Assembly: GCF_003018255.1 (NCBI RefSeq)
Contig: NZ_CP027440.1
Direction: 5' to 3' (one strand)
Source of the DNA: Escherichia coli
Lineage (GTDB): Bacteria > Pseudomonadota > Gammaproteobacteria > Enterobacterales > Enterobacteriaceae
DNA length: 64,000 nucleotides
Shown: positions 21,211-31,056 of the stretch, one piece after another
Layout: each line of letters begins with the position of its first letter
Position numbering within the stretch: position 1 is the first letter of the stretch
Position numbers and translations under genes: made by a program
The notes under the pieces: generated by a model
Seen by the model: the letters and a program-made list of their open reading frames with translations, nothing else
The model's database searches: none
Told to the model about the DNA's origin: nothing

Positions 21211-23157
21211 ATGAATTTTGAAGAGCTTATAAATGATATTGAAAGACTCTTAATTGGTAAAGAGTTGCAGTCTATAAATCCTAACACCCCCCCATTATTC
21301 CTTTTAAAAATAGACAGGGATATTGGTAAATATTACGTGTCTGTTTCTTTAAATGCTAAGCCTACGGCAAGGTCAATTTCTGAATTTGAATATATATTTA
21401 ATGACTTACTGCGTAAAGGGTTTTGTAATGTAGATCAGTCATTATATGGTAGCTCTTCAAGCCGTAATCACCCGGAAACAATATTTGCAAACTTGCCTTA
21501 TATTCAATTCTTTAAGTTCAAGAAAAAGAAACATATATTATTACGTAATAAAAATGTACACGAAGCAGGTCAACTTTCTGAATTACAAGGGGCTGAGTCT
21601 CGTGCTATAAGGAAGCAAATAGAAAATTATTTATCTCTAAATTTAAGTGAAATTGCAGAGCAGCAGTTAAAATCGTTGGAAAAAATGTTCGATGCGTATG
21701 ATGCTATTTTAAAAAAATACCCAGGGGATATCCCTGTTATAATGGCTGAGCAAGGCTTGTTGGGATTAAAAAACATTAGCGAAGTACTGATTAATTCTTA
21801 TGTTTCCTTGGATTTTGACAGTAGTGGCGATAAAATAAATAAATTAAGTAAATTTAAACAGGTGGAGTTATTTAAAGAAGATTTATCTTTAGAGGATTTA
21901 ATTGAGTCCCCTGAGATAAGTGGAGTTGATTCAGGTGATAAGAATATTGAGGAACAATCGGAATCAGAATTAGCACCTGAGCAAAAACGTACGGGCATTG
22001 CAAAAATGCTTATGACTACACCAGTTTTAACACTAATTTTTGATCGTGTAAGATATGATGAAATTGAGTTACAACCTGACTTTCAGAGAAAAGACCGAAT
22101 TTGGCCTGACGACAAAAAGTCAAAACTTATTGAATCAATATTAATGAAGCTTCCATTACCGGGGTTTTACTTTGGTGAAAAGCCAAACGGTAACTGGGTA
22201 GTTATTGATGGCCTTCAAAGAACGACTACAATTTGTGATTATATGAGTGGTCATTTCTCATTGAAAGGGCTCTCTATTTTAGAGCACTTAAATGGAAAGA
22301 GTTTTAAAGATCTTACTCGAACCGAGCAACGAGACATTAGAGAGTATCAAATTACGGCTTACCAAATAGAACTAAATGATGATAGTTCTGAATTGGTTGT
22401 AGAACTATTCCATAGAATAAACACTTATGGTGTAAAGTTAAGTAGTCAAGAAATAAGATCTGCACTTAATAAAGGCAATAGCGTAACCTTTTTACGTTAT
22501 TTAGCTTCATTAGAAACGTTCAAAAAAGCGACGCAATTTAAAGTAAAGCCGGACAGGCAAAAAGATATGGAGCTCTGTTTGTCCGCTCTTGCTTTTATGG
22601 TACTTGGTTATAATAACTATGGCCAACATTCGTATGATCATTTTTTATGTAGTGCAATGCAGAAGCTAAATAATTATCCATTAAGCATCATTAATAAAGA
22701 AGAGATTGATGCTGGAACAGCTCTTATTTCTCCTTCAAGTGAAGTCTTTTTAACTTTATATTCAAAATATAATCAGGCTTTAATCTTAGCAAATGAAGTT
22801 TTTGGTGAAATAGCTTTTTCAAAAGATCCGGAAAATAAAAAATCACCTATTAATAAACAACTCTTTGAGTTAATTGTTACTGTTTTCTCTGTATTTGACT
22901 CACATCAAAAGGAGATGATGTTAGCTAATGGTGATAAATTTATTGATAGCTTATACTTGGCTATTGAGGAGAATAGTAGTCGATATGCTAAGTGGGAGTC
23001 TGATACATATGAAAAGGACGATAGAGGATTTAGAGACTCAATATCTACTTCGACAGGTAAAAGAATATCTGTTGTATATCGATTTGATGCTTTTTTAAAT
23101 ATCCTTGGAAAAAGCACAGGAATAACTATTGATAGTAAATTATTACAGGGGGAGTGA
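21211..23157 (+). CDS. DUF262 / ParB-like (GmrSD N-terminal-type) domain protein with unknown N- and C-terminal domains
   Basis: 648 aa; central region has LQPDFQRKDRIW and DGLQR (variant of the DGQQR motif); no recognisable DUF1524/His-Me nuclease motif; AT-rich. Confidence 0.7.
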   Translation: MNFEELINDIERLLIGKELQSINPNTPPLFLLKIDRDIGKYYVSVSLNAKPTARSISEFEYIFNDLLRKGFCNVDQSLYGSSSSRNHPETIFANLPYIQFFKFKKKKHILLRNKNVHEAGQLSELQGAESRAIRKQIENYLSLNLSEIAEQQLKSLEKMFDAYDAILKKYPGDIPVIMAEQGLLGLKNISEVLINSYVSLDFDSSGDKINKLSKFKQVELFKEDLSLEDLIESPEISGVDSGDKNIEEQSESELAPEQKRTGIAKMLMTTPVLTLIFDRVRYDEIELQPDFQRKDRIWPDDKKSKLIESILMKLPLPGFYFGEKPNGNWVVIDGLQRTTTICDYMSGHFSLKGLSILEHLNGKSFKDLTRTEQRDIREYQITAYQIELNDDSSELVVELFHRINTYGVKLSSQEIRSALNKGNSVTFLRYLASLETFKKATQFKVKPDRQKDMELCLSALAFMVLGYNNYGQHSYDHFLCSAMQKLNNYPLSIINKEEIDAGTALISPSSEVFLTLYSKYNQALILANEVFGEIAFSKDPENKKSPINKQLFELIVTVFSVFDSHQKEMMLANGDKFIDSLYLAIEENSSRYAKWESDTYEKDDRGFRDSISTSTGKRISVVYRFDAFLNILGKSTGITIDSKLLQGE

Positions 23158-24305
23158 TGAAAAAAATTACGTCTTTAACATTAAAAAATTTCAAAGCTTA
23201 TAAAGAACAGAGTTTTGATTTTAGTAATTTAACTGTATTTTGCGGTAATAATTCTGTTGGTAAAAGTACGGCTATTCAAGCTATCGGTATGTTTCTCCAA
23301 TCAGATATGAATGGTAACAGTAATCTAAAAATAAATGGCGATTTAGTTCATGTCGGAGACTTCGACGATATTCATAATTTCAGTATGCGTGAGGATGATG
23401 TTTTATATTTAAAATATACATTTGAAGACGATACGGCTTGCTGGGGATATGGTATAGAAGAAGGGGATGCTAGAGAAGAACTTTCTAGGAAAAATGAATT
23501 ACCTTTTATTGGGTGTGATAAACAATTAAGAACTATAACAAACTCACTTAAAGATAACTTTTCATTCCAATATTTGGAAGCGGAGAGATTTGGTCCAAGA
23601 GATAATATTCCATTATCACAGCACAATTATCATGAAGGTTGGCTTGGGAAAAATGGGGAACATACAATTGAAGTTCTTGAGAGTTTGGTCACAAGGAGGC
23701 GTTTAAATTTTTCTGCTCAAGAGGATCCTAGGAAACATGAAGGAATTATTAATAATAATGTTTTCAATCATATTGAAGCATGGATGTCTGAGATTTCACC
23801 AGGGCATCGTATCTCACCTAGAATTGAGGCTAGGGCGAATGTTGCATTTAATGTCATAATCCCTTCACCTGGACAATTAACGAAACCTATTAACATAGGA
23901 TTTGGATTTAGTTATGCTCTTAGTATTGTCACTGCTTTAATGCTGGCATCAAAAAATGAACTCGTTATTATTGAAAATCCTGAGGCTCATCTACATCCAA
24001 GAGGTCAAAGCTATTTAGGACGACTTATTGCTTTATCAGCAAAAGCAGGGATCCAGGTTATTATTGAGACTCATAGTGATCATCTTCTTAATGGCATAAG
24101 AGTAATTGCACGCACAGATCCAACTTTTGATGCTTCTCTTTTTACTCTTTACTATATTTCACGAGAAAATGATGAAACATCTGTCGCCAAAATAAAAATA
24201 AATAATGAAGGGAAACTTTCCGAATGGCCTAGAGGGTTCTTTGATCAACAATCACAGGATATGTATACGATAATGACAGGCTCTTTTGATCATCCCAATA
24301 TTTAA
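23157..24305 (+). CDS. ABC/SMC-like AAA ATPase (AAA_15/AAA_21-type with DUF3696-like C-terminal region)
   Basis: ORF track 23154 (GTG); ATG at 23157 overlaps upstream TGA (TGATG) with GGGGAG RBS. Walker A GNNSVGKST; ENPEAHLHP Walker B/D-loop signature; ETHSDH H-loop. Confidence 0.75.
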   Translation: MKKITSLTLKNFKAYKEQSFDFSNLTVFCGNNSVGKSTAIQAIGMFLQSDMNGNSNLKINGDLVHVGDFDDIHNFSMREDDVLYLKYTFEDDTACWGYGIEEGDAREELSRKNELPFIGCDKQLRTITNSLKDNFSFQYLEAERFGPRDNIPLSQHNYHEGWLGKNGEHTIEVLESLVTRRRLNFSAQEDPRKHEGIINNNVFNHIEAWMSEISPGHRISPRIEARANVAFNVIIPSPGQLTKPINIGFGFSYALSIVTALMLASKNELVIIENPEAHLHPRGQSYLGRLIALSAKAGIQVIIETHSDHLLNGIRVIARTDPTFDASLFTLYYISRENDETSVAKIKINNEGKLSEWPRGFFDQQSQDMYTIMTGSFDHPNI

Positions 24306-24324
24306 TATTGTAGGGACATATAAA

Positions 24325-25209
24325 ATGAAAGCTGGCGTGTTTCTTATTCCTGAATGTTTTGATTTCAATACGGATATTTTATCTTTAAGTTCGGACCTTG
24401 ATCTGGCTTCGAAACTCGTAGTAAATACCCGTTCAGAATTTATTCACTTTATGAAATCTAGGGAGTTTGACTCGAAGATTGCGGAGTTATTGTTTTCCAC
24501 ATCACCTGATTATGCTGGAATGATGTCAAGATTTTACGATCAGCATCTATCAAAAGTTATAAAAATGGATATTAATGACGATGATATTATTGATATTATA
24601 AATAGCGAAGAACCTAAGTATTCTAACCGTTTGTTATCAATTTTTAATACGGGAAAAAAAGATTTAAATATTAAATATGTTAATAGATTAATTGACTCAG
24701 AAATTAAGATGAATGATTATTGTACTGATATCTTATTGAATTACCCAAGAAATGACGAGCAATACTGTGAGGATATACAGCAGGTTTATAAAAATTTAAT
24801 TTTCCTAGATTATCCAGAGGCAAAAGAATTTAAGACATTTAATAGTCTCAAGAGAATGACCGGTGGTTATGATAATTTCTTGAAGGCTATAACCAATTTT
24901 TTAAGTTATATGAATAAATTCGAATTCAAAACGAAAGATATGATGGATACATTGAAAATGATGGAGAGTGATTTAGGATCTCCAGTAACTCCGGAAGGAG
25001 GGGGGAAGAAAAGCCGATCTTTGAAAAGAGATTTTTTAATTAATGGAAAGCTATATACAAATGTAAACTGCGAATTCCATTTGAAATTAGAAAATGTTGA
25101 TGATACTAAGGGAAACAGAAAACACCATAAGAATAGAATTTATTTTGGATTTATTATGATAAGTGATAAAAACAGAGTGGCAATAGCTCATATTGGGGAA
25201 CACATTTGA
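24325..25209 (+). CDS. Hypothetical protein, third gene of the DUF262-ATPase operon
   Basis: ORF track 24286..25209; ATG at 24325 with AGGGA RBS follows the ATPase stop by 20 nt; 294 aa, no recognisable motif. Confidence 0.5.
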   Translation: MKAGVFLIPECFDFNTDILSLSSDLDLASKLVVNTRSEFIHFMKSREFDSKIAELLFSTSPDYAGMMSRFYDQHLSKVIKMDINDDDIIDIINSEEPKYSNRLLSIFNTGKKDLNIKYVNRLIDSEIKMNDYCTDILLNYPRNDEQYCEDIQQVYKNLIFLDYPEAKEFKTFNSLKRMTGGYDNFLKAITNFLSYMNKFEFKTKDMMDTLKMMESDLGSPVTPEGGGKKSRSLKRDFLINGKLYTNVNCEFHLKLENVDDTKGNRKHHKNRIYFGFIMISDKNRVAIAHIGEHI

Positions 25210-25270: not shown

Positions 25271-26344
25271 CTATATAACACAATCTTCCATAAAAGAATC
25301 TAGAAATAAATCATTTATTCCTTTAGGTTTTCTTCGGTCGCATAGAGAGTATAATTCTTCAACTGAAGAGTAAGGGAAGAATTTAGCTTTTAATTCAATG
25401 AATTGGGGCATGTTTGCAAATTCTATCACCTTTGCTCGATATTCATCAGGAGCAACGATAGTCCAACGGATATCTTGTAATCTCGGTGCATGATCATAGA
25501 ATTGTTTCATGCGAGTCAGACCACTTTTTATACCAGTACTGTGTTCAATCTCCATTACTGCTGGCATCATGCGGCCTTCCCTAAACCAAATGCAGTCTAT
25601 AAGACGAGCATCTTTAATCGCATCATTATACGATTGGAGTACTTGCTCATCAGATAATGAACTTATTACACCGTCCATTTGCGCTATAGCTTTACCATTA
25701 TATTGTAAGCTACGATCATTGGCTGCTACCCAAGTATCTAAACCTAAACAATAACCTATTTTTACTAAGGCAATTTGTATCTGAGCATGACGTCTTTTTT
25801 CTTCAATAGTCATGCCTTTAGTCGGTTTAATTGTCTCAATATCAACGCTTTGGTGAACAACATCGAAGCTCATTTCAGAGACAACAATATTAGTCTGGTG
25901 CTCAATTAACAAACCATTAGTATGTGGCATATCTGGCAGAAAAATCAGATGCTTATGTCCTGGTTTTATAGACTTTTGTGCATTCATGATTTCCAGTCTG
26001 GCTGGCCTACACCAATAGAACTCTGGAGTATGTGCGAGCAAGCTCTCCAATACCGAGCGGGTGTTGTAACTGGCACCGAAAACCCTTTCAACGTTGACAG
26101 GTCTGTTTTCTTCGAGTGCATTTGCAAGTCGCCAAAGCATTTGAGTCGAAATACTCTCTGTTTTAGCTGTTGCTTGAGTTTGACCTTTCTTAGGATCAAA
26201 TCTCTTTATTTCGATAGGACCTTCGGGATGTTGGATACGTACAATCTCAATCTTCCCGCTATTCCTATCGTTTATATAGTTAAACAGCGTATTTTTGGGT
26301 AAGCTCGAAATCGCCTGAACCAGATTCGATGCTGTTATCCTCAT
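25271..26344 (-). CDS. Putative Type II restriction endonuclease partnered with the adjacent C5-methyltransferase
   Basis: 357 aa ORF directly downstream of and overlapping the MTase 3' end (about 65 nt, ATG at 26344 with AGGA RBS); no family motif recognised; call is from gene context. Confidence 0.5.
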   Translation of the reverse strand: MRITASNLVQAISSLPKNTLFNYINDRNSGKIEIVRIQHPEGPIEIKRFDPKKGQTQATAKTESISTQMLWRLANALEENRPVNVERVFGASYNTRSVLESLLAHTPEFYWCRPARLEIMNAQKSIKPGHKHLIFLPDMPHTNGLLIEHQTNIVVSEMSFDVVHQSVDIETIKPTKGMTIEEKRRHAQIQIALVKIGYCLGLDTWVAANDRSLQYNGKAIAQMDGVISSLSDEQVLQSYNDAIKDARLIDCIWFREGRMMPAVMEIEHSTGIKSGLTRMKQFYDHAPRLQDIRWTIVAPDEYRAKVIEFANMPQFIELKAKFFPYSSVEELYSLCDRRKPKGINDLFLDSFMEDCVI

Positions 26345-27419
26345 TACTGTATCCTAAATGTTGCAAAATTGATTGGGCAATACCGAGCGCGGCGATATAG
26401 GGAACTCCGTTTCCGACTGTTTTAAACATATTCGACAAAGTCATATCCCCTGGTAGCTCAAAATTTTTTGGCAAAGACTGGATTGCCAATGCTTCAGCGA
26501 CCGTAATACGACGAGGTTTGTATGGGTGAAGGTGAACTTCATTATTACCATATGCTGCTGTTGGAGAGTATCTCCAGCGATGAAGCCTTTTATATGATTT
26601 TTTACTATCGTCGCCTTCTTCTACTGACTGGAATCTTGCTAAACCGGCTCGGGCCGTAAATACATGTTTAGCGTTTGGATGATTGGTAACATCGTTTTTC
26701 TCGAACCAGTATTCTATAGTAAGTTCTTCTGGAATACCTTGCGGGCATTCCATACTTGAGTCTTCTTCGTATGTGTTTGTTGTTGGCCAAGGGAACTGGA
26801 AAGCTTCCTTATTGGGGTATATTTGGCCACTCCATTCGAAGTTTTTGGCTAAAGACTTATCAAGAAAACCAACTAAAATAATCCTTTCTCGATCTTGAGG
26901 CGCACCGTATTCAATTGAATTAATCAATCTTTCATGCAGGATATATCCTACTGAAGCTAGTTCATTCTTAATTTGTTCGAAAAATTCTCTATGTTTAAGA
27001 GTCCGGTATAAGCCTTTAACGTTTTCAAAAAGGAAGAAATCAGGCATCATTTCAATTATCAGGTCAATGTAACTTTGTGATAATTTGCCATTTTCACCAT
27101 CTTTGCCTTTGTTTTTGCCAGCAACAGAAAAGTCAGGGCATGGTGGTCCGCCAATGAAGCCCACTAGGCGGTTTTCACCTTTCAGTGTTTTCATGCTATG
27201 CTTAATCACTGAATGCTCAATAGTTTCAATGCTTTCTTGGGCATACCCAAAGCGTGGCGGCTGTTTGCCAAGTTTTTTTCTTGAGTGTTTATACGCGTCC
27301 ATGAAGGGAGGATGGAATTCATTGACGAAAACCACCTCATACCCGGCATTTTCGAAGCCTAGGTCAAGAAAACCTGATCCTGAAAAGAATGAAAATATAG
27401 CGGGTTTCATTGTGGACAT
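26280..27419 (-). CDS. DNA cytosine-5 methyltransferase (Dcm-like)
   Basis: 379 aa; motif I FSGSGF, PC motif GGPPCPDFSVAGK, ENV motif ENVKGL. Confidence 0.85.
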   Translation of the reverse strand: MSTMKPAIFSFFSGSGFLDLGFENAGYEVVFVNEFHPPFMDAYKHSRKKLGKQPPRFGYAQESIETIEHSVIKHSMKTLKGENRLVGFIGGPPCPDFSVAGKNKGKDGENGKLSQSYIDLIIEMMPDFFLFENVKGLYRTLKHREFFEQIKNELASVGYILHERLINSIEYGAPQDRERIILVGFLDKSLAKNFEWSGQIYPNKEAFQFPWPTTNTYEEDSSMECPQGIPEELTIEYWFEKNDVTNHPNAKHVFTARAGLARFQSVEEGDDSKKSYKRLHRWRYSPTAAYGNNEVHLHPYKPRRITVAEALAIQSLPKNFELPGDMTLSNMFKTVGNGVPYIAALGIAQSILQHLGYSNEDNSIESGSGDFELTQKYAV

Positions 27420-27644
27420 TTTATACCTATCAAGTTAGCTTAAATTTTTACTAAATATCTCGCTGTACGATCCTACTATTTTACATGATAACTTGTTAAT
27501 TATCAATTTACTTTTTAATATATTAGCAAATAAGACCTGGCACTACTTCAGATTAGATAGTATTCATTGCTATAAAGTTAGGTGTTAATATATTGATTAA
27601 TAGTATAAGCTGCTATTATAGATTTAGAAACCGAAGGAACTTAT

Positions 27645-28100
27645 ATGCCTGATATGAGGTTATTTAAATCAAAAAACACCAAACTTGAGTTAAGAATCAG
27701 GAAGCCGTTGTTTGCCAGAGGATTTCGTTATCGATTGCATAATAGTGGTTTGCCTGGTAGACCAGATATGTATTTCCCTAAATACAATGCAGTCATTTTT
27801 ATCCATGGCTGTTTTTGGCATGGGCATGATAACGGCTGCCCTATATCTCACACTCCTAAAAATAATGAATCGTACTGGCAAAATAAAATCAATAAAAATC
27901 AAGAAAGAGATGTCAAAAATCAATATGTTCTTGCATCTAAAAACATCCGCGTTCTGATTATATGGGAGTGTGCAATAAAACTTAAAAGTATTGATTTTGT
28001 CGATTTTATTGATTACATCGATGAATGGCTTAGAGGTGGGGCAAATTCAACACAGATGAGCGCAAAGGAACCAATGCCGACTTTTGAGTTTCCGAAATGA
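27645..28100 (+). CDS. vsr: Very short patch repair endonuclease (Vsr)
   Basis: 151 aa; Vsr-like sequence incl. FIHGCFWHGH; divergent from the C5-MTase as is typical. Confidence 0.85.
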   Translation: MPDMRLFKSKNTKLELRIRKPLFARGFRYRLHNSGLPGRPDMYFPKYNAVIFIHGCFWHGHDNGCPISHTPKNNESYWQNKINKNQERDVKNQYVLASKNIRVLIIWECAIKLKSIDFVDFIDYIDEWLRGGANSTQMSAKEPMPTFEFPK

Positions 28101-28282
28101 ATTATTATGACAAGTTCCCTTGAGTGGTAATATCTAACATCGTTATTTGCTAATATATATATGAAATAAAGTAATTGCCAAGAAATTTATTACAAAACAA
28201 GACCCGCAAAAAATCTCTTTCCATGTGGGGTTTTATTAGCTATTAGTGTTTGGTTAAATTATTAACCATCAATAGGCATCCT

Positions 28283-28423
28283 ATGCTTCAATCTCTGAAC
28301 CACTTAACGCTCGCCGTCAGTAATTTGCAAACTAGCCTGACATTCTGGCGCGATTTACTAGGGCTACATGTGGGAGATTTAGCATCCCGACTGACGCAGT
28401 GCCGGGAGAGGCCTTGCTCTTGA
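28283..28423 (+). pseudogene. fosA: Remnant of a fosA-like (glutathione transferase, fosfomycin resistance) gene with large internal deletion
   Basis: 46-codon ORF MLQSLNHLTLAVSNLQTSLTFWRDLLGLHVGDLASRLTQCRERPCS: first ~28 aa match the FosA N-terminus and the rest matches the FosA C-terminal HVGSLAARLAACRE region, from memory. Confidence 0.45.
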
Positions 28424-28555
28424 ATGCGTTTCGGACCTGGAAAATAATTACGCAACTTTGTGATCTTCCACCCAGTATTCAATTTTATGTCCCATTTTGG
28501 GGGCAAATCCTCAAAATAAAATCTCACAAACCATTATTTTTCAACGAATTAAACG

Positions 28556-28588
28556 CAAAGGCGAGTCCGGCCTTCGACCTTCGCACCA
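28556..28588. repeat. Degenerate copy of the 3' end of tRNA-Leu (leuX): candidate distal att repeat (attR) of the genomic island
   Basis: GCGAGTCCGGCCTTCGACCTTCGCACCA resembles the leuX 3' end GGTTCGAGTCCGGCCTTCGGCACCA (from memory); no full tRNA present. Confidence 0.45.
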
Positions 28589-29353
28589 TCGGAACATCAA
28601 TAGACGTCAACGGACGTTTTTTTATGACTGAAATCCGCGCCACACAAGGCTTTTCGCTATTTTTCGCTCAACCTAAGTCAACCTACATCAACTTACTGAT
28701 GTGGATACAGCTACAGCTGCGGCTATATCCCGATTCGATAATGTTTGTACCCACACAAAACCCTTGAAAGGCTACAAGGCTGAAATTGTCTAAACCATAG
28801 AGATGATTTTTATGATCCAGTCTTTCTCTTGTTGAGATAGTTCCAGTTTGCTCACTCGTGTTAAGAAGGTATTGATCACCTGAACATCCGAATTGGTGAG
28901 CCTATTTAATAGAGCGGGTGGTATACCTTTACTAACAATCGCTTTGCGGTGACTTTCGTAGTTTTTATTACTCATTGTTGATCCTCAAAAATCATTGTAT
29001 GGCGGCATTGATCGTTTCCAGCAACCTTTACTTACTCACTTCGAACTGCATCCTCGTAGACTGTTCCACTACAATAATCGAAAAGGCGCGGATGTCCATT
29101 CAGGTATCCCGCTAATACGTATAGCAATAACAATGGCTTATGCGGCGCGCGCTGTTCACCCTTGTGCCAGATTTTTATATTGGCAATTGCCTGCTGTAGC
29201 GATTTACTGGAAGCCATTGATATCCCTGGCAGTGAAATAATTGCGATCATGCTCGCAAATTTTCTGCTGTTCAAGCCTGCAAGTGAAGATATATTACCTT
29301 GATCTCATTTGTTTTTTTGCTGCCTGTTCTGAGAACGTATAAGGACATTCTCC

Positions 29354-30004
29354 ATGAATAAACTCCCTGATCATCTTCCGCGGCGGTATATCATCGAAGC
29401 TATCCATTTATGGGATGCGGGAGAAACTCATCAGTTCCAGCCTGCGCGGTTGTATGAGATTGAATATCATGGCCGACGTTACCCCTCGAAGGCGATTGCT
29501 GGCATCGCAGCGACATTGATGACGGGGACGCAATTTACCCCTGCGGATTTCACCGGCGGAATAAAATCTAAATGCGTCAAACTACTCATAGAGCAGGGAT
29601 TTCATATTCATCAGGATAAAGCCGCTGCGGCTCCCATAGCCGACGTTCTGTTCCCGGATGAGTTGCCGTCGCAGGAGACATACCTTGAAGGTGCGGCGAT
29701 AAAGGTGACAGTAAACCGCTATGAACGCGATAAAAAGGCCCGAGATAAAGCGGTCGAACATCATGGATGCCAGTGCAACGTATGCGGCGTTGATCTGGTG
29801 AAGATCTATGGTGATATCGCTGAAGGCTTTATCCATATGCATCACCTGGTGCCGCTTTCAGCCATTAAAGAGGATTACCAGCTGGATCCAGTTAATGATT
29901 TGCTGCCTGTGTGCCCTAATTGCCATGCGATGCTGCACCGACGCAAACCACCGTTTTCACCGGAGGAGTTAAAAGCGTTGATGGATGCAAATAAATCAAA
30001 TTAA
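29354..30004 (+). CDS. HNH endonuclease with uncharacterised N-terminal domain
   Basis: 216 aa; C-terminal HNH motif CQCNVCG...HMHHLVPLS...N...CPNCH. Confidence 0.7.
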   Translation: MNKLPDHLPRRYIIEAIHLWDAGETHQFQPARLYEIEYHGRRYPSKAIAGIAATLMTGTQFTPADFTGGIKSKCVKLLIEQGFHIHQDKAAAAPIADVLFPDELPSQETYLEGAAIKVTVNRYERDKKARDKAVEHHGCQCNVCGVDLVKIYGDIAEGFIHMHHLVPLSAIKEDYQLDPVNDLLPVCPNCHAMLHRRKPPFSPEELKALMDANKSN

Positions 30005-30011
30005 TGAACGC

Positions 30012-30992
30012 TCACCTTTCGCGCCAAAACCGCAAAATTGCTTCTACAAACCTGTCAGAAATAATCCCCCGACGGGCTGCCGCGCTGAAATGACTGCTTC
30101 GCAGTGCCGTCGTCCAGTTCTCCGGTGACCGGTACGCTGAACCGTAATATCCCGTGCTTAAATCGTCCGGATCTTCATCAGGCGCGTTCGTCAGTCCTCT
30201 TTCACCTTGTTGCTGGAAGTCGACGAAAATAATATTGGCTAAAACATTATTTTGATAATTGCCATAAATCGCTTCATACGCATGAGGGAAATTTTCTTTC
30301 CAGTACCAGGTGGTATCGCCGCAAAACCACGGTGCGTCAGTAATATTATTAAGCTGAGAATGGTATTGTTTTAGATCCCTACGAAAGGCTTCAACCATAT
30401 GATTAAAGTGTTGAGGGTGTGACGAGTAGTCACAGGTCATTAAGTCAAATTCGCCTTGCATCCAGCATACGCCGAGGAATTTGTTCTGCGGATTTTTTGC
30501 CAGTGCGGCTCGCGTTCTGCTGACTAAATCCTGGTACAGCGGAGTATCCGTTCCCCAACGACAAGCATCATGGCTGGCTCCGTGCCGTTCTGAATATGTC
30601 CCTTCGCTGCCCGCGGTAAAAGCCGATCCGCCACGGCAACACGGAACGATGAGAACCCCTGCGTTATCAGGAATAAAGGGCAGTAATTTCCGTGCAATAT
30701 GCAGTGCCTGGCCAACGGTGCCGTACTGTGTTTGATGATTTGTTGCCAGAGGATGGTGATAACCCTGCATATCCTGAACATCGTGTGGGCAGTGAGTCAG
30801 TGGAATAATGTCGTTAAAGTGACATGACGGGCCTCCGGGATGCGTATGCGCAAATCTCGCTAATTGTTTAATTCTGGGATGAGGCGCATCTTCCCTGTCC
30901 GGTAATGGCAGTCCTTCGCCATACGCCATGGCATTAGACTGACCAGCAACGGTAAGAACATAGTAATAATCGGGCGATATTATTGCGTTCAT
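30012..30992 (-). CDS. nanS: N-acetyl-9-O-acetylneuraminate esterase NanS
   Basis: ORF 30012..31019 trimmed to ATG at 30992 (MNAIISPDYYYVLTVAGQSNAMAYG...), 326 aa; nanS-nanM-nanC context. Confidence 0.85.
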   Translation of the reverse strand: MNAIISPDYYYVLTVAGQSNAMAYGEGLPLPDREDAPHPRIKQLARFAHTHPGGPSCHFNDIIPLTHCPHDVQDMQGYHHPLATNHQTQYGTVGQALHIARKLLPFIPDNAGVLIVPCCRGGSAFTAGSEGTYSERHGASHDACRWGTDTPLYQDLVSRTRAALAKNPQNKFLGVCWMQGEFDLMTCDYSSHPQHFNHMVEAFRRDLKQYHSQLNNITDAPWFCGDTTWYWKENFPHAYEAIYGNYQNNVLANIIFVDFQQQGERGLTNAPDEDPDDLSTGYYGSAYRSPENWTTALRSSHFSAAARRGIISDRFVEAILRFWRER

Positions 30993-31056
30993 ATAATTTT
31001 CGCGTAATACAAATGACAAATTGATAGCAGGGCCCCTTTACCGAGGCCCTGAAGCG

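Follow-up and report, generated by a model that had tools for sequence, protein, structure and literature searches.

Results

Genes at the locus

We analyzed a window of 64,000 nucleotides from Escherichia coli (contig NZ_CP027440.1, assembly GCF_003018255.1), which covers the variable region upstream of nanS-nanM-nanC-fimB. Beside nanS lies an intact gene of 216 amino acids (aa; 29354-30004, plus strand) for a nuclease with an N-terminal ScoMcrA_N ("head") domain and a C-terminal HNH domain, hereafter head-HNH. The gene was identified from its open reading frame (ORF) and sequence, the NCBI Prokaryotic Genome Annotation Pipeline (PGAP), its homologues and the ratio of non-synonymous to synonymous substitution rates (dN/dS). 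It starts with ATG, with AGGA 8 nt upstream, and in the identical strain JNE23-011 PGAP lists its product (WP_001561329.1) as "HNH endonuclease". Only 7 bp separate its stop codon from that of the convergent nanS. On the other side, a divergent intergenic region of 136 bp (29218-29353) holds the head-HNH promoter and ribosome-binding site and is followed by the 5' remnant of a second nuclease gene (29054-29217, minus strand).

The C-terminal part of the protein (29726-30004, plus strand) is an McrA-type HNH (beta-beta-alpha-metal) nuclease domain with two CxxC zinc knuckles. Pfam HNH (PF01844) matched aa 141-197 with 21.8 bits against a cut-off of 21.4, phmmer aligned aa 123-199 with EcoKMcrA (PDB 6ghc, E 0.001), and Foldseek supported the domain with a probability of 0.98-1.0. 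In 100 homologues C141, C144 and H163 were invariant, and H164, C187, C190, H191 and H195 were conserved in at least 90%. An ORF with a C-terminal HNH domain next to nanS, as reported in the first-pass annotation, was therefore confirmed by all of these comparisons. The motif had also been called canonical; it is so except that the central Asn position of H-N-H is occupied by D182. Asp stands at this position in at least 90% of the head-HNH family; D182 is a family trait rather than a sign of decay. The nuclease module (aa ~95-216) also occurs behind other N-terminal domains in many phyla at 45-58% identity, as a swappable cassette; one example is an Mrr_N-HNH protein with 49.5% identity. The mREase_IV matches returned by PADLOC were only weak.

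The head domain spans aa 1-89 (29354-29620, plus strand) and has the order helix-strand-strand-helix-helix-strand. Conserved residues are H26, F28, Y34, Y43, K46-A47, G50, A52, P63, F66, G68-G69 and C74. A phmmer search of PDB sequences aligned aa 24-87 with residues 29-93 of ScoMcrA (5zmm; E 4e-5). The local copies of Pfam and NCBIfam gave no match to the head domain, and that Pfam copy does not contain PF26345; the name PF26345 (ScoMcrA_N) comes from precomputed hits on homologues. Precomputed PF26345 and PF01844 assignments were found together on 2586 homologues of the protein, and both domains of this two-domain family are present in the 216-aa protein, where the head is the sole non-catalytic domain. 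AlphaFold2 models were confident for aa 1-89 and 125-216. The acidic linker between them (aa 90-124; 29621-29725, plus strand; isoelectric point (pI) 4.4) was disordered, with a predicted local distance difference test score <50 at aa 90-103 and 108-123. It runs into a conserved NRYERD..AR lead-in of the nuclease module, in which N121, E124, R125 and R130 were invariant and R122 was conserved in at least 90% of the 100 homologues.

Of 1.84 billion cluster representatives, 2866 matched a profile of the head domain; the matching proteins were 92-1567 aa long. Pfam composition was counted among 108 of the top profile hits. HNH (43) and HNH_2 (22) together accounted for 65, followed by EVE (14), NOV_C (8), AAA_5 (McrB-like; 6), DUF3427 (4), SAD_SRA (3), MrcB_N (2), AspBHI_N (1) and Mrr_N (1). 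Layouts included head-EVE-HNH_2 and head-...-EVE-AAA_5, and the head is also found with an SBD module, as in ScoMcrA. These fusion partners are typical parts of modification-dependent restriction enzymes. The N-terminal domain, which had been left uncharacterised, is thus the ScoMcrA head, fused elsewhere to EVE, SRA, DUF3427 or SBD readers and to HNH, NOV_C or McrB-type modules; its family is linked to Type IV enzymes and not to a function outside defence.

A truncated divergent neighbour

An antisense 80-aa ORF upstream of head-HNH (29032-29274, minus strand) had been considered of doubtful reality. Our comparisons refute its dismissal as noise. Its residues 25-68 matched positions 2-45 of NCBIfam NF045808, "phosphorothioated DNA-binding restriction endonuclease" (E 1.7e-16). 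A tblastn search with the intact E. coli SMS-3-5 enzyme (290 aa) gave 48/48 identities over aa 1-48 at window positions 29074-29217, and a custom SBD hidden Markov model (HMM) covered its positions 1-51 in the stub. Because the tblastn match begins at 29217, the true start is ATG 29217 and not TTG 29274. The ORF therefore consists of about 53 codons of an EcoWI-like SBD-HNH gene (29054-29217), extended upstream to a TTG and followed past the breakpoint by junk sequence. DNA homology to the intact SMS-3-5 allele ended at 29054 in blastn, and the nuclease part is lost. The stub retains HKPLLLL, corresponding to the KPzzLL motif (PMC7461809). Full-length members of the NF045808 family (~290 aa) have a complete SBD plus HNH_2, and the stub is a pseudogene remnant of this family; the PGAP annotations of JNE23-011 and CFSAN027346 likewise list this stub as a pseudogene. 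Head-HNH does stand alone in this strain, as first described. It does so only secondarily, since the 80-aa ORF is what remains of its divergent partner.

The family of the truncated neighbour, EcoWI/SBD-HNH (NF045808; PMC7461809), is distinct from that of the 216-aa protein. The latter scored 16.7 bits against the NF045808 cut-off of 180, did not match the custom SBD HMM, and carries PF01844 where SBD-HNH enzymes carry HNH_2; an SBD (PF26340) N-terminal to HNH_2 is absent from it, and the two proteins shared 28% identity over 75 aa. The intact SMS-3-5 SBD-HNH has 290 aa and 33.2 kDa, compared with 33.4 kDa reported for EcoWI (PMC7461809). No EcoWI accession or sequence was found in the text or supplement of PMC7461809 that we searched, and we therefore use the label "EcoWI-like" without claiming orthology to EcoWI proper.

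Intergenic region, palindrome and YthB

The intergenic region was kept intact relative to SMS-3-5. A promoter scan gave no convincing or strong sigma-70 consensus for head-HNH. Within the region lies the palindrome TTGCGATCATGCTCGCAA (29241-29258), a conserved 5' element of SBD-HNH genes. An exact match to the 18-bp palindrome TTGCGATNATGCTCGCAA preceded each fetched SBD-HNH gene by 24-31 bp (L003 5185-5202; L004 5884-5901; L025 4753-4770, minus strand; L084 12647-12664; L088 6846-6863; L093 6846-6863), with 0.01 chance matches expected in the window. It was kept although the intergenic DNA around it had diverged and the identity of the SBD-HNH proteins was as low as ~50% for copies from mobile elements, and it was also present at SBD-HNH loci that do not carry head-HNH. 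As a cis element of the SBD gene, the palindrome would be either an operator for some factor or a hairpin in the 5' untranslated region.

In K-12 the counterpart of the intergenic region drives the small protein YthB. YthB of K-12 and BL21 (MNKLPAHLSRQNCKIASTNLSEIIPRRAAVLK, 33 aa) begins with the MNKLP.HL of the HNH protein. A deletion of ~626 bp (window ~29383-30008) joined 29354-29382 to 30009 onward, bringing the promoter, ribosome-binding site and first ~9 codons of head-HNH in front of the antisense of the nanS 3' end; in BL21(DE3) the result lies at 15101-15199 of the fetched locus. YthB is a deletion relic of the HNH gene. Tagged YthB was detected in MG1655 (bioRxiv 10.1101/511675), and therefore the start region of the HNH gene can be expressed.

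The tail of K-12 YthB is homologous to a 29-codon ORF in the window (30004-30093, plus strand) that PGAP calls a "hypothetical protein" and that runs antisense to the 3' end of nanS. It is probably not a gene here. The convergent nanS (30012-31019, minus strand), for a sialate O-acetylesterase, is a full-length ORF with a Pfam SASA match. In matching RefSeq genomes PGAP marks nanS as partial, with the 29-aa "hypothetical protein" overlapping its 3' end. The small ORF probably explains the partial mark, which is likely an annotation artefact.

The gene pair in other genomes

SBD-HNH (289-293 aa, minus strand) and head-HNH (plus strand) were intact, divergent and 130-180 bp apart in several genomes. 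These were E. coli SMS-3-5, flanked by Wadjet and Zorya; two Citrobacter species; Klebsiella aerogenes, together with Mrr_N-HNH and HsdR/M; and Klebsiella sp. R445, where the pair adjoins Wadjet. Between genera the identity was 78-86% for SBD-HNH and 64-75% for head-HNH, and the flanks differed. Diverged copies of both genes, 4 kb apart, were also found on an integrative and conjugative element (ICE) of E. coli and relatives (L084-L087, L095-L096), with ~50% identity for SBD-HNH and 59-65% for head-HNH, so that joint use of the two nucleases extends to mobile elements. The ICE also encodes an integrase, TraI_2, TraG_N and ArdC, and some copies contain DarT/Macro or AbiEi.

Each gene also occurred without the other. 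Head-HNH was found without SBD-HNH in Pantoea stewartii, Atlantibacter, Escherichia sp. ESNIH1, Pseudescherichia, Shewanella algae and two metagenomic lineages, whereas SBD-HNH with Mrr_N-HNH and no head-HNH was found in C. portucalensis and Enterobacter. Further defence genes at head-HNH loci included GmrSD_N and NACHT. No methyltransferase was adjacent to the HNH gene in SMS-3-5, Klebsiella, Pantoea, Shewanella or the other loci. The co-occurrence sample comprised about a dozen independent loci, because the scan of genome contigs mostly returned proteins sharing the HNH module only.

At two loci the gene directly after SBD-HNH encodes an Mrr_N (winged-helix)-HNH protein (K. aerogenes, L088 5260-6821; C. 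portucalensis, L025 4785-6378), and the nuclease module of this islet protein was ~50% identical to that of head-HNH. The K. aerogenes islet contains three HNH enzymes, each with a different sensor domain, and adjoins Type I HsdR/HsdM; the C. portucalensis islet has SBD-HNH and Mrr_N-HNH only.

Distribution and selection in E. coli

Gene presence was counted in 5426 complete E. coli genomes at a coverage of at least 80%, which indicates presence of the gene but does not prove an open frame. Head-HNH was present in 1238 genomes (23%) and SBD-HNH in 1707. Both were present in 326, compared with ~390 expected if they were independent, which is about chance level. Head-HNH is thus an accessory gene and not a conserved core gene of E. 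coli.

Four deletion alleles differed by lineage. In the window type the SBD gene is cut at 29054. The OkiPb01688 type is missing window positions 29328-29898, so that only the final 105 bp of the HNH gene remain. In the O157 type the SBD-HNH gene abuts nanM, and the K-12/B type has the ~626-bp deletion that gave YthB. Given these lineage-specific alleles and the co-occurrence near chance, the two genes decay independently in E. coli.

Both domains of head-HNH are under purifying selection. Nei-Gojobori dN/dS between genera was 0.08-0.23 for both domains, with dS saturated. Within E. coli it was 0.12-0.18, based on 7-8 synonymous and 3-5 non-synonymous changes. In thousands of genomes the gene occupies a fixed chromosomal position beside nanS. 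A plasmid collection gave seven full-length matches, including records of 1.2-5.4 Mb that are probably not true plasmids.

The upstream island

Upstream of the islet the window carries a candidate NsnABC-like system (21211-25209, plus strand) of three co-directional genes, identified by PADLOC as NsnA (containing GmrSD_N/DUF262), NsnB (an AAA_15/DUF3696 ATPase) and NsnC. It is followed by a complete Type II restriction-modification system with Vsr (25271-28100). The restriction endonuclease (357 aa; 25271-26344; PADLOC REase_II, E 3e-120) overlaps the C5-methyltransferase (379 aa; 26280-27419), and the Vsr mismatch endonuclease is divergent from both. This system adjoins the HNH gene in only 42 of the 5426 genomes. 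The first-pass annotation had noted that no methyltransferase lies beside the HNH gene. None that is cognate does; the C5-methyltransferase 1.9 kb upstream was rejected as a partner, as it has its own restriction endonuclease and Vsr and belongs to a different, rarer island.

A fragment of a VOC/glyoxalase-family gene (28250-28423) is a pseudogene according to PGAP in JNE23-011. The island ends at 28571, where homology to other strains begins. An att remnant had been placed here, and the boundary itself was borne out; ARAGORN and Rfam detected no tRNA or other RNA in 28100-29400. The boundary falls inside a stretch at ~28560-28590 that looks like a tRNA 3' end, although neither program calls it.

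Discussion

A probable solitary Type IV-like nuclease

We consider it probable, by a modest margin over even odds, that the 216-aa protein is a solitary Type IV-like restriction nuclease, one of the two options raised in the first-pass annotation. It combines a nuclease domain and a head of the kind found in modification-dependent enzymes, and it has no cognate methyltransferase, as is typical of Type IV systems. The conserved catalytic His and zinc-binding Cys residues, purifying selection on both domains and a setting in defence islands also speak for it. The occurrence of head-HNH without SBD-HNH in other lineages, the chance-level co-occurrence in E. coli, and the autonomy of EcoWI in a B strain together with the absence of head-HNH from BL21(DE3) suggest that it works alone. 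The head would recognise DNA by a feature that host DNA does not have, and the flexible acidic linker would tether it to the zinc-stabilised McrA-type HNH, which would cut nearby. DNA cleavage in vivo, its dependence on modification and the targeting role of the head are inferred. The gene originally formed a conserved islet of two divergent genes with that of an EcoWI-like phosphorothioate-cutting enzyme; in this strain a rearrangement at the island border has removed the partner beyond ~53 codons and left head-HNH alone and intact.

The target would most likely be a foreign modification, because the protein has no methyltransferase of its own and coexists with Dam, Dcm and the neighbouring C5-methyltransferase. 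The pattern of the latter is an unlikely target, since the strain carries that enzyme with its own restriction endonuclease and Vsr. Judging from general E. coli biology, Dam and Dcm marks are also unlikely targets.

Three known systems resemble the 216-aa protein in part. EcoKMcrA (e14 prophage; 6ghc) was the best match in sequence and fold for the HNH domain, which is nearer to that of EcoKMcrA than to that of ScoMcrA, and both proteins have a two-domain reader-HNH layout. The match to 6ghc was, however, limited to aa 123-199: the N-terminal NEco domain of EcoKMcrA, a reader of 5-hydroxymethylcytosine (5hmC) and 5-methylcytosine (5mC), is unrelated to the head and is absent from the 216-aa protein. 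ScoMcrA (Streptomyces coelicolor Sco4631; PDB 5zmm) is a Type IV enzyme of 561 aa with the order head-SBD-SRA-HNH. In contrast, the 216-aa protein has neither the SBD nor the SRA, the domains shown to read phosphorothioate and 5mC/5hmC. The winged-helix (wH)-HNH enzymes of 224-283 aa, such as SruGXI, are proven Type IV enzymes dependent on N6-methyladenine (PMC11037411). They provide an experimental precedent, being of the same size class and layout as the 216-aa protein, with a small N-terminal DNA sensor, a linker and an HNH domain.

Several observations weigh against a solitary Type IV-like enzyme. The authors of the ScoMcrA structure described the head as small and flexibly attached and assigned it no function (PMC6224610). 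A full-text literature search for "ScoMcrA_N" returned no paper. The N-terminal domain has a pI of 8.8, which is only mildly basic; structural comparison matched it to no known DNA-binding fold at a significant level and gave no solved homologue with a ligand. Multidomain relatives usually have the head beside an established reader (EVE, SBD or SRA), and it may be an accessory module instead of a reader. The Pfam score of the HNH domain scarcely exceeds the threshold. Finally, head-HNH is deleted in most E. coli lineages, and selection for the gene is therefore weak or episodic.

Alternative explanations

The first alternative is a nuclease that acts independently of modification, that is, a structure-specific or non-specific HNH enzyme serving as a toxin, as a repair or recombination factor or as an effector triggered in another way. 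Consistent with this, no ligand has been demonstrated for the head (PMC6224610). Such HNH modules can cut without a reader, as truncated SprMcrA is a non-specific nickase (PMC7461809), and the head also occurs with STAND/AAA NTPases and NUDIX. An unregulated nuclease without an immunity gene would, however, be toxic, and no small neighbour was conserved across the loci. Head fusion partners, moreover, are overwhelmingly Type IV parts. We regard this alternative as unlikely, although it fares best among the competing explanations.

A second alternative is that head-HNH obligately needs SBD-HNH and that the two together make double-strand cuts at phosphorothioate sites, as a split ScoMcrA; the gene in the window would then be a non-functional leftover. 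Head and SBD are indeed fused in one polypeptide in ScoMcrA, and the divergent pair is conserved across four genera despite different flanks, with a third, diverged copy of both genes within 4 kb on the ICE. EcoWI also leaves many nicks, at a ratio of double- to single-strand cuts of about 3:1 (PMC7461809). On the other hand, EcoWI cleaves GpsAAC/GpsTTC DNA and prevents dnd+ plasmids from transforming cells, and on its own it restricts phosphorothioated plasmids completely in a B-strain host (PMC7461809). BL21(DE3), which we took as a stand-in for that host, does not have head-HNH. About 900 E. coli genomes keep the HNH gene alone and about 1400 keep SBD-HNH alone, and at least 7 other lineages have head-HNH without any SBD gene. 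SBD-HNH also pairs with Mrr_N-HNH instead, and of the two genes only the SBD gene has the conserved palindrome. An obligate partnership is in our view slightly less likely than modification-independent cleavage. A further reading, in which the head itself reads some DNA modification and the two enzymes of the pair also cooperate (as a natural split ScoMcrA) rather than being independent neighbours, is likewise doubtful.

The gene may also be a decaying one that is open by chance. The locus is something of a graveyard in E. coli, where the HNH gene has three different deletion alleles and the SBD gene several, and fewer than a quarter of the genomes keep head-HNH. Synonymous changes nevertheless exceeded non-synonymous ones within the species, the catalytic and structural residues are all intact and the promoter region is kept. 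We consider decay improbable, more so than either preceding explanation. A selfish, mobile homing-type endonuclease, which the first-pass annotation had suggested for an HNH domain without a methyltransferase, is very improbable: 50,697 phage records gave no full-length match (the HNH module alone occurred in 8), the locus beside nanS is fixed and has no intron, intein or phage context, and the N-terminal domain is common to Type IV enzymes.

Implications

The 216-aa protein adds to a known kind of enzyme, and the locus is more structured than first described. Its current annotation is misleading: the nuclease has only the generic label "HNH endonuclease", the 29-aa ORF is spurious, and nanS is wrongly given as partial. 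That YthB was created by one islet deletion suggests an accidental fusion rather than an evolved microprotein. The two-nuclease islet beside nanS, eroded by deletions that differ between lineages, shows defence-gene turnover. The head domain is widespread, occurring in many Type IV enzymes and McrB-like NTPases, and the 216-aa protein presents it in its simplest natural context and in a tractable host. If the head is itself a reader of some DNA modification, which we consider doubtful in combination with a cooperating pair, the protein would be its minimal natural reader-nuclease, in which the function of the head would be directly testable.

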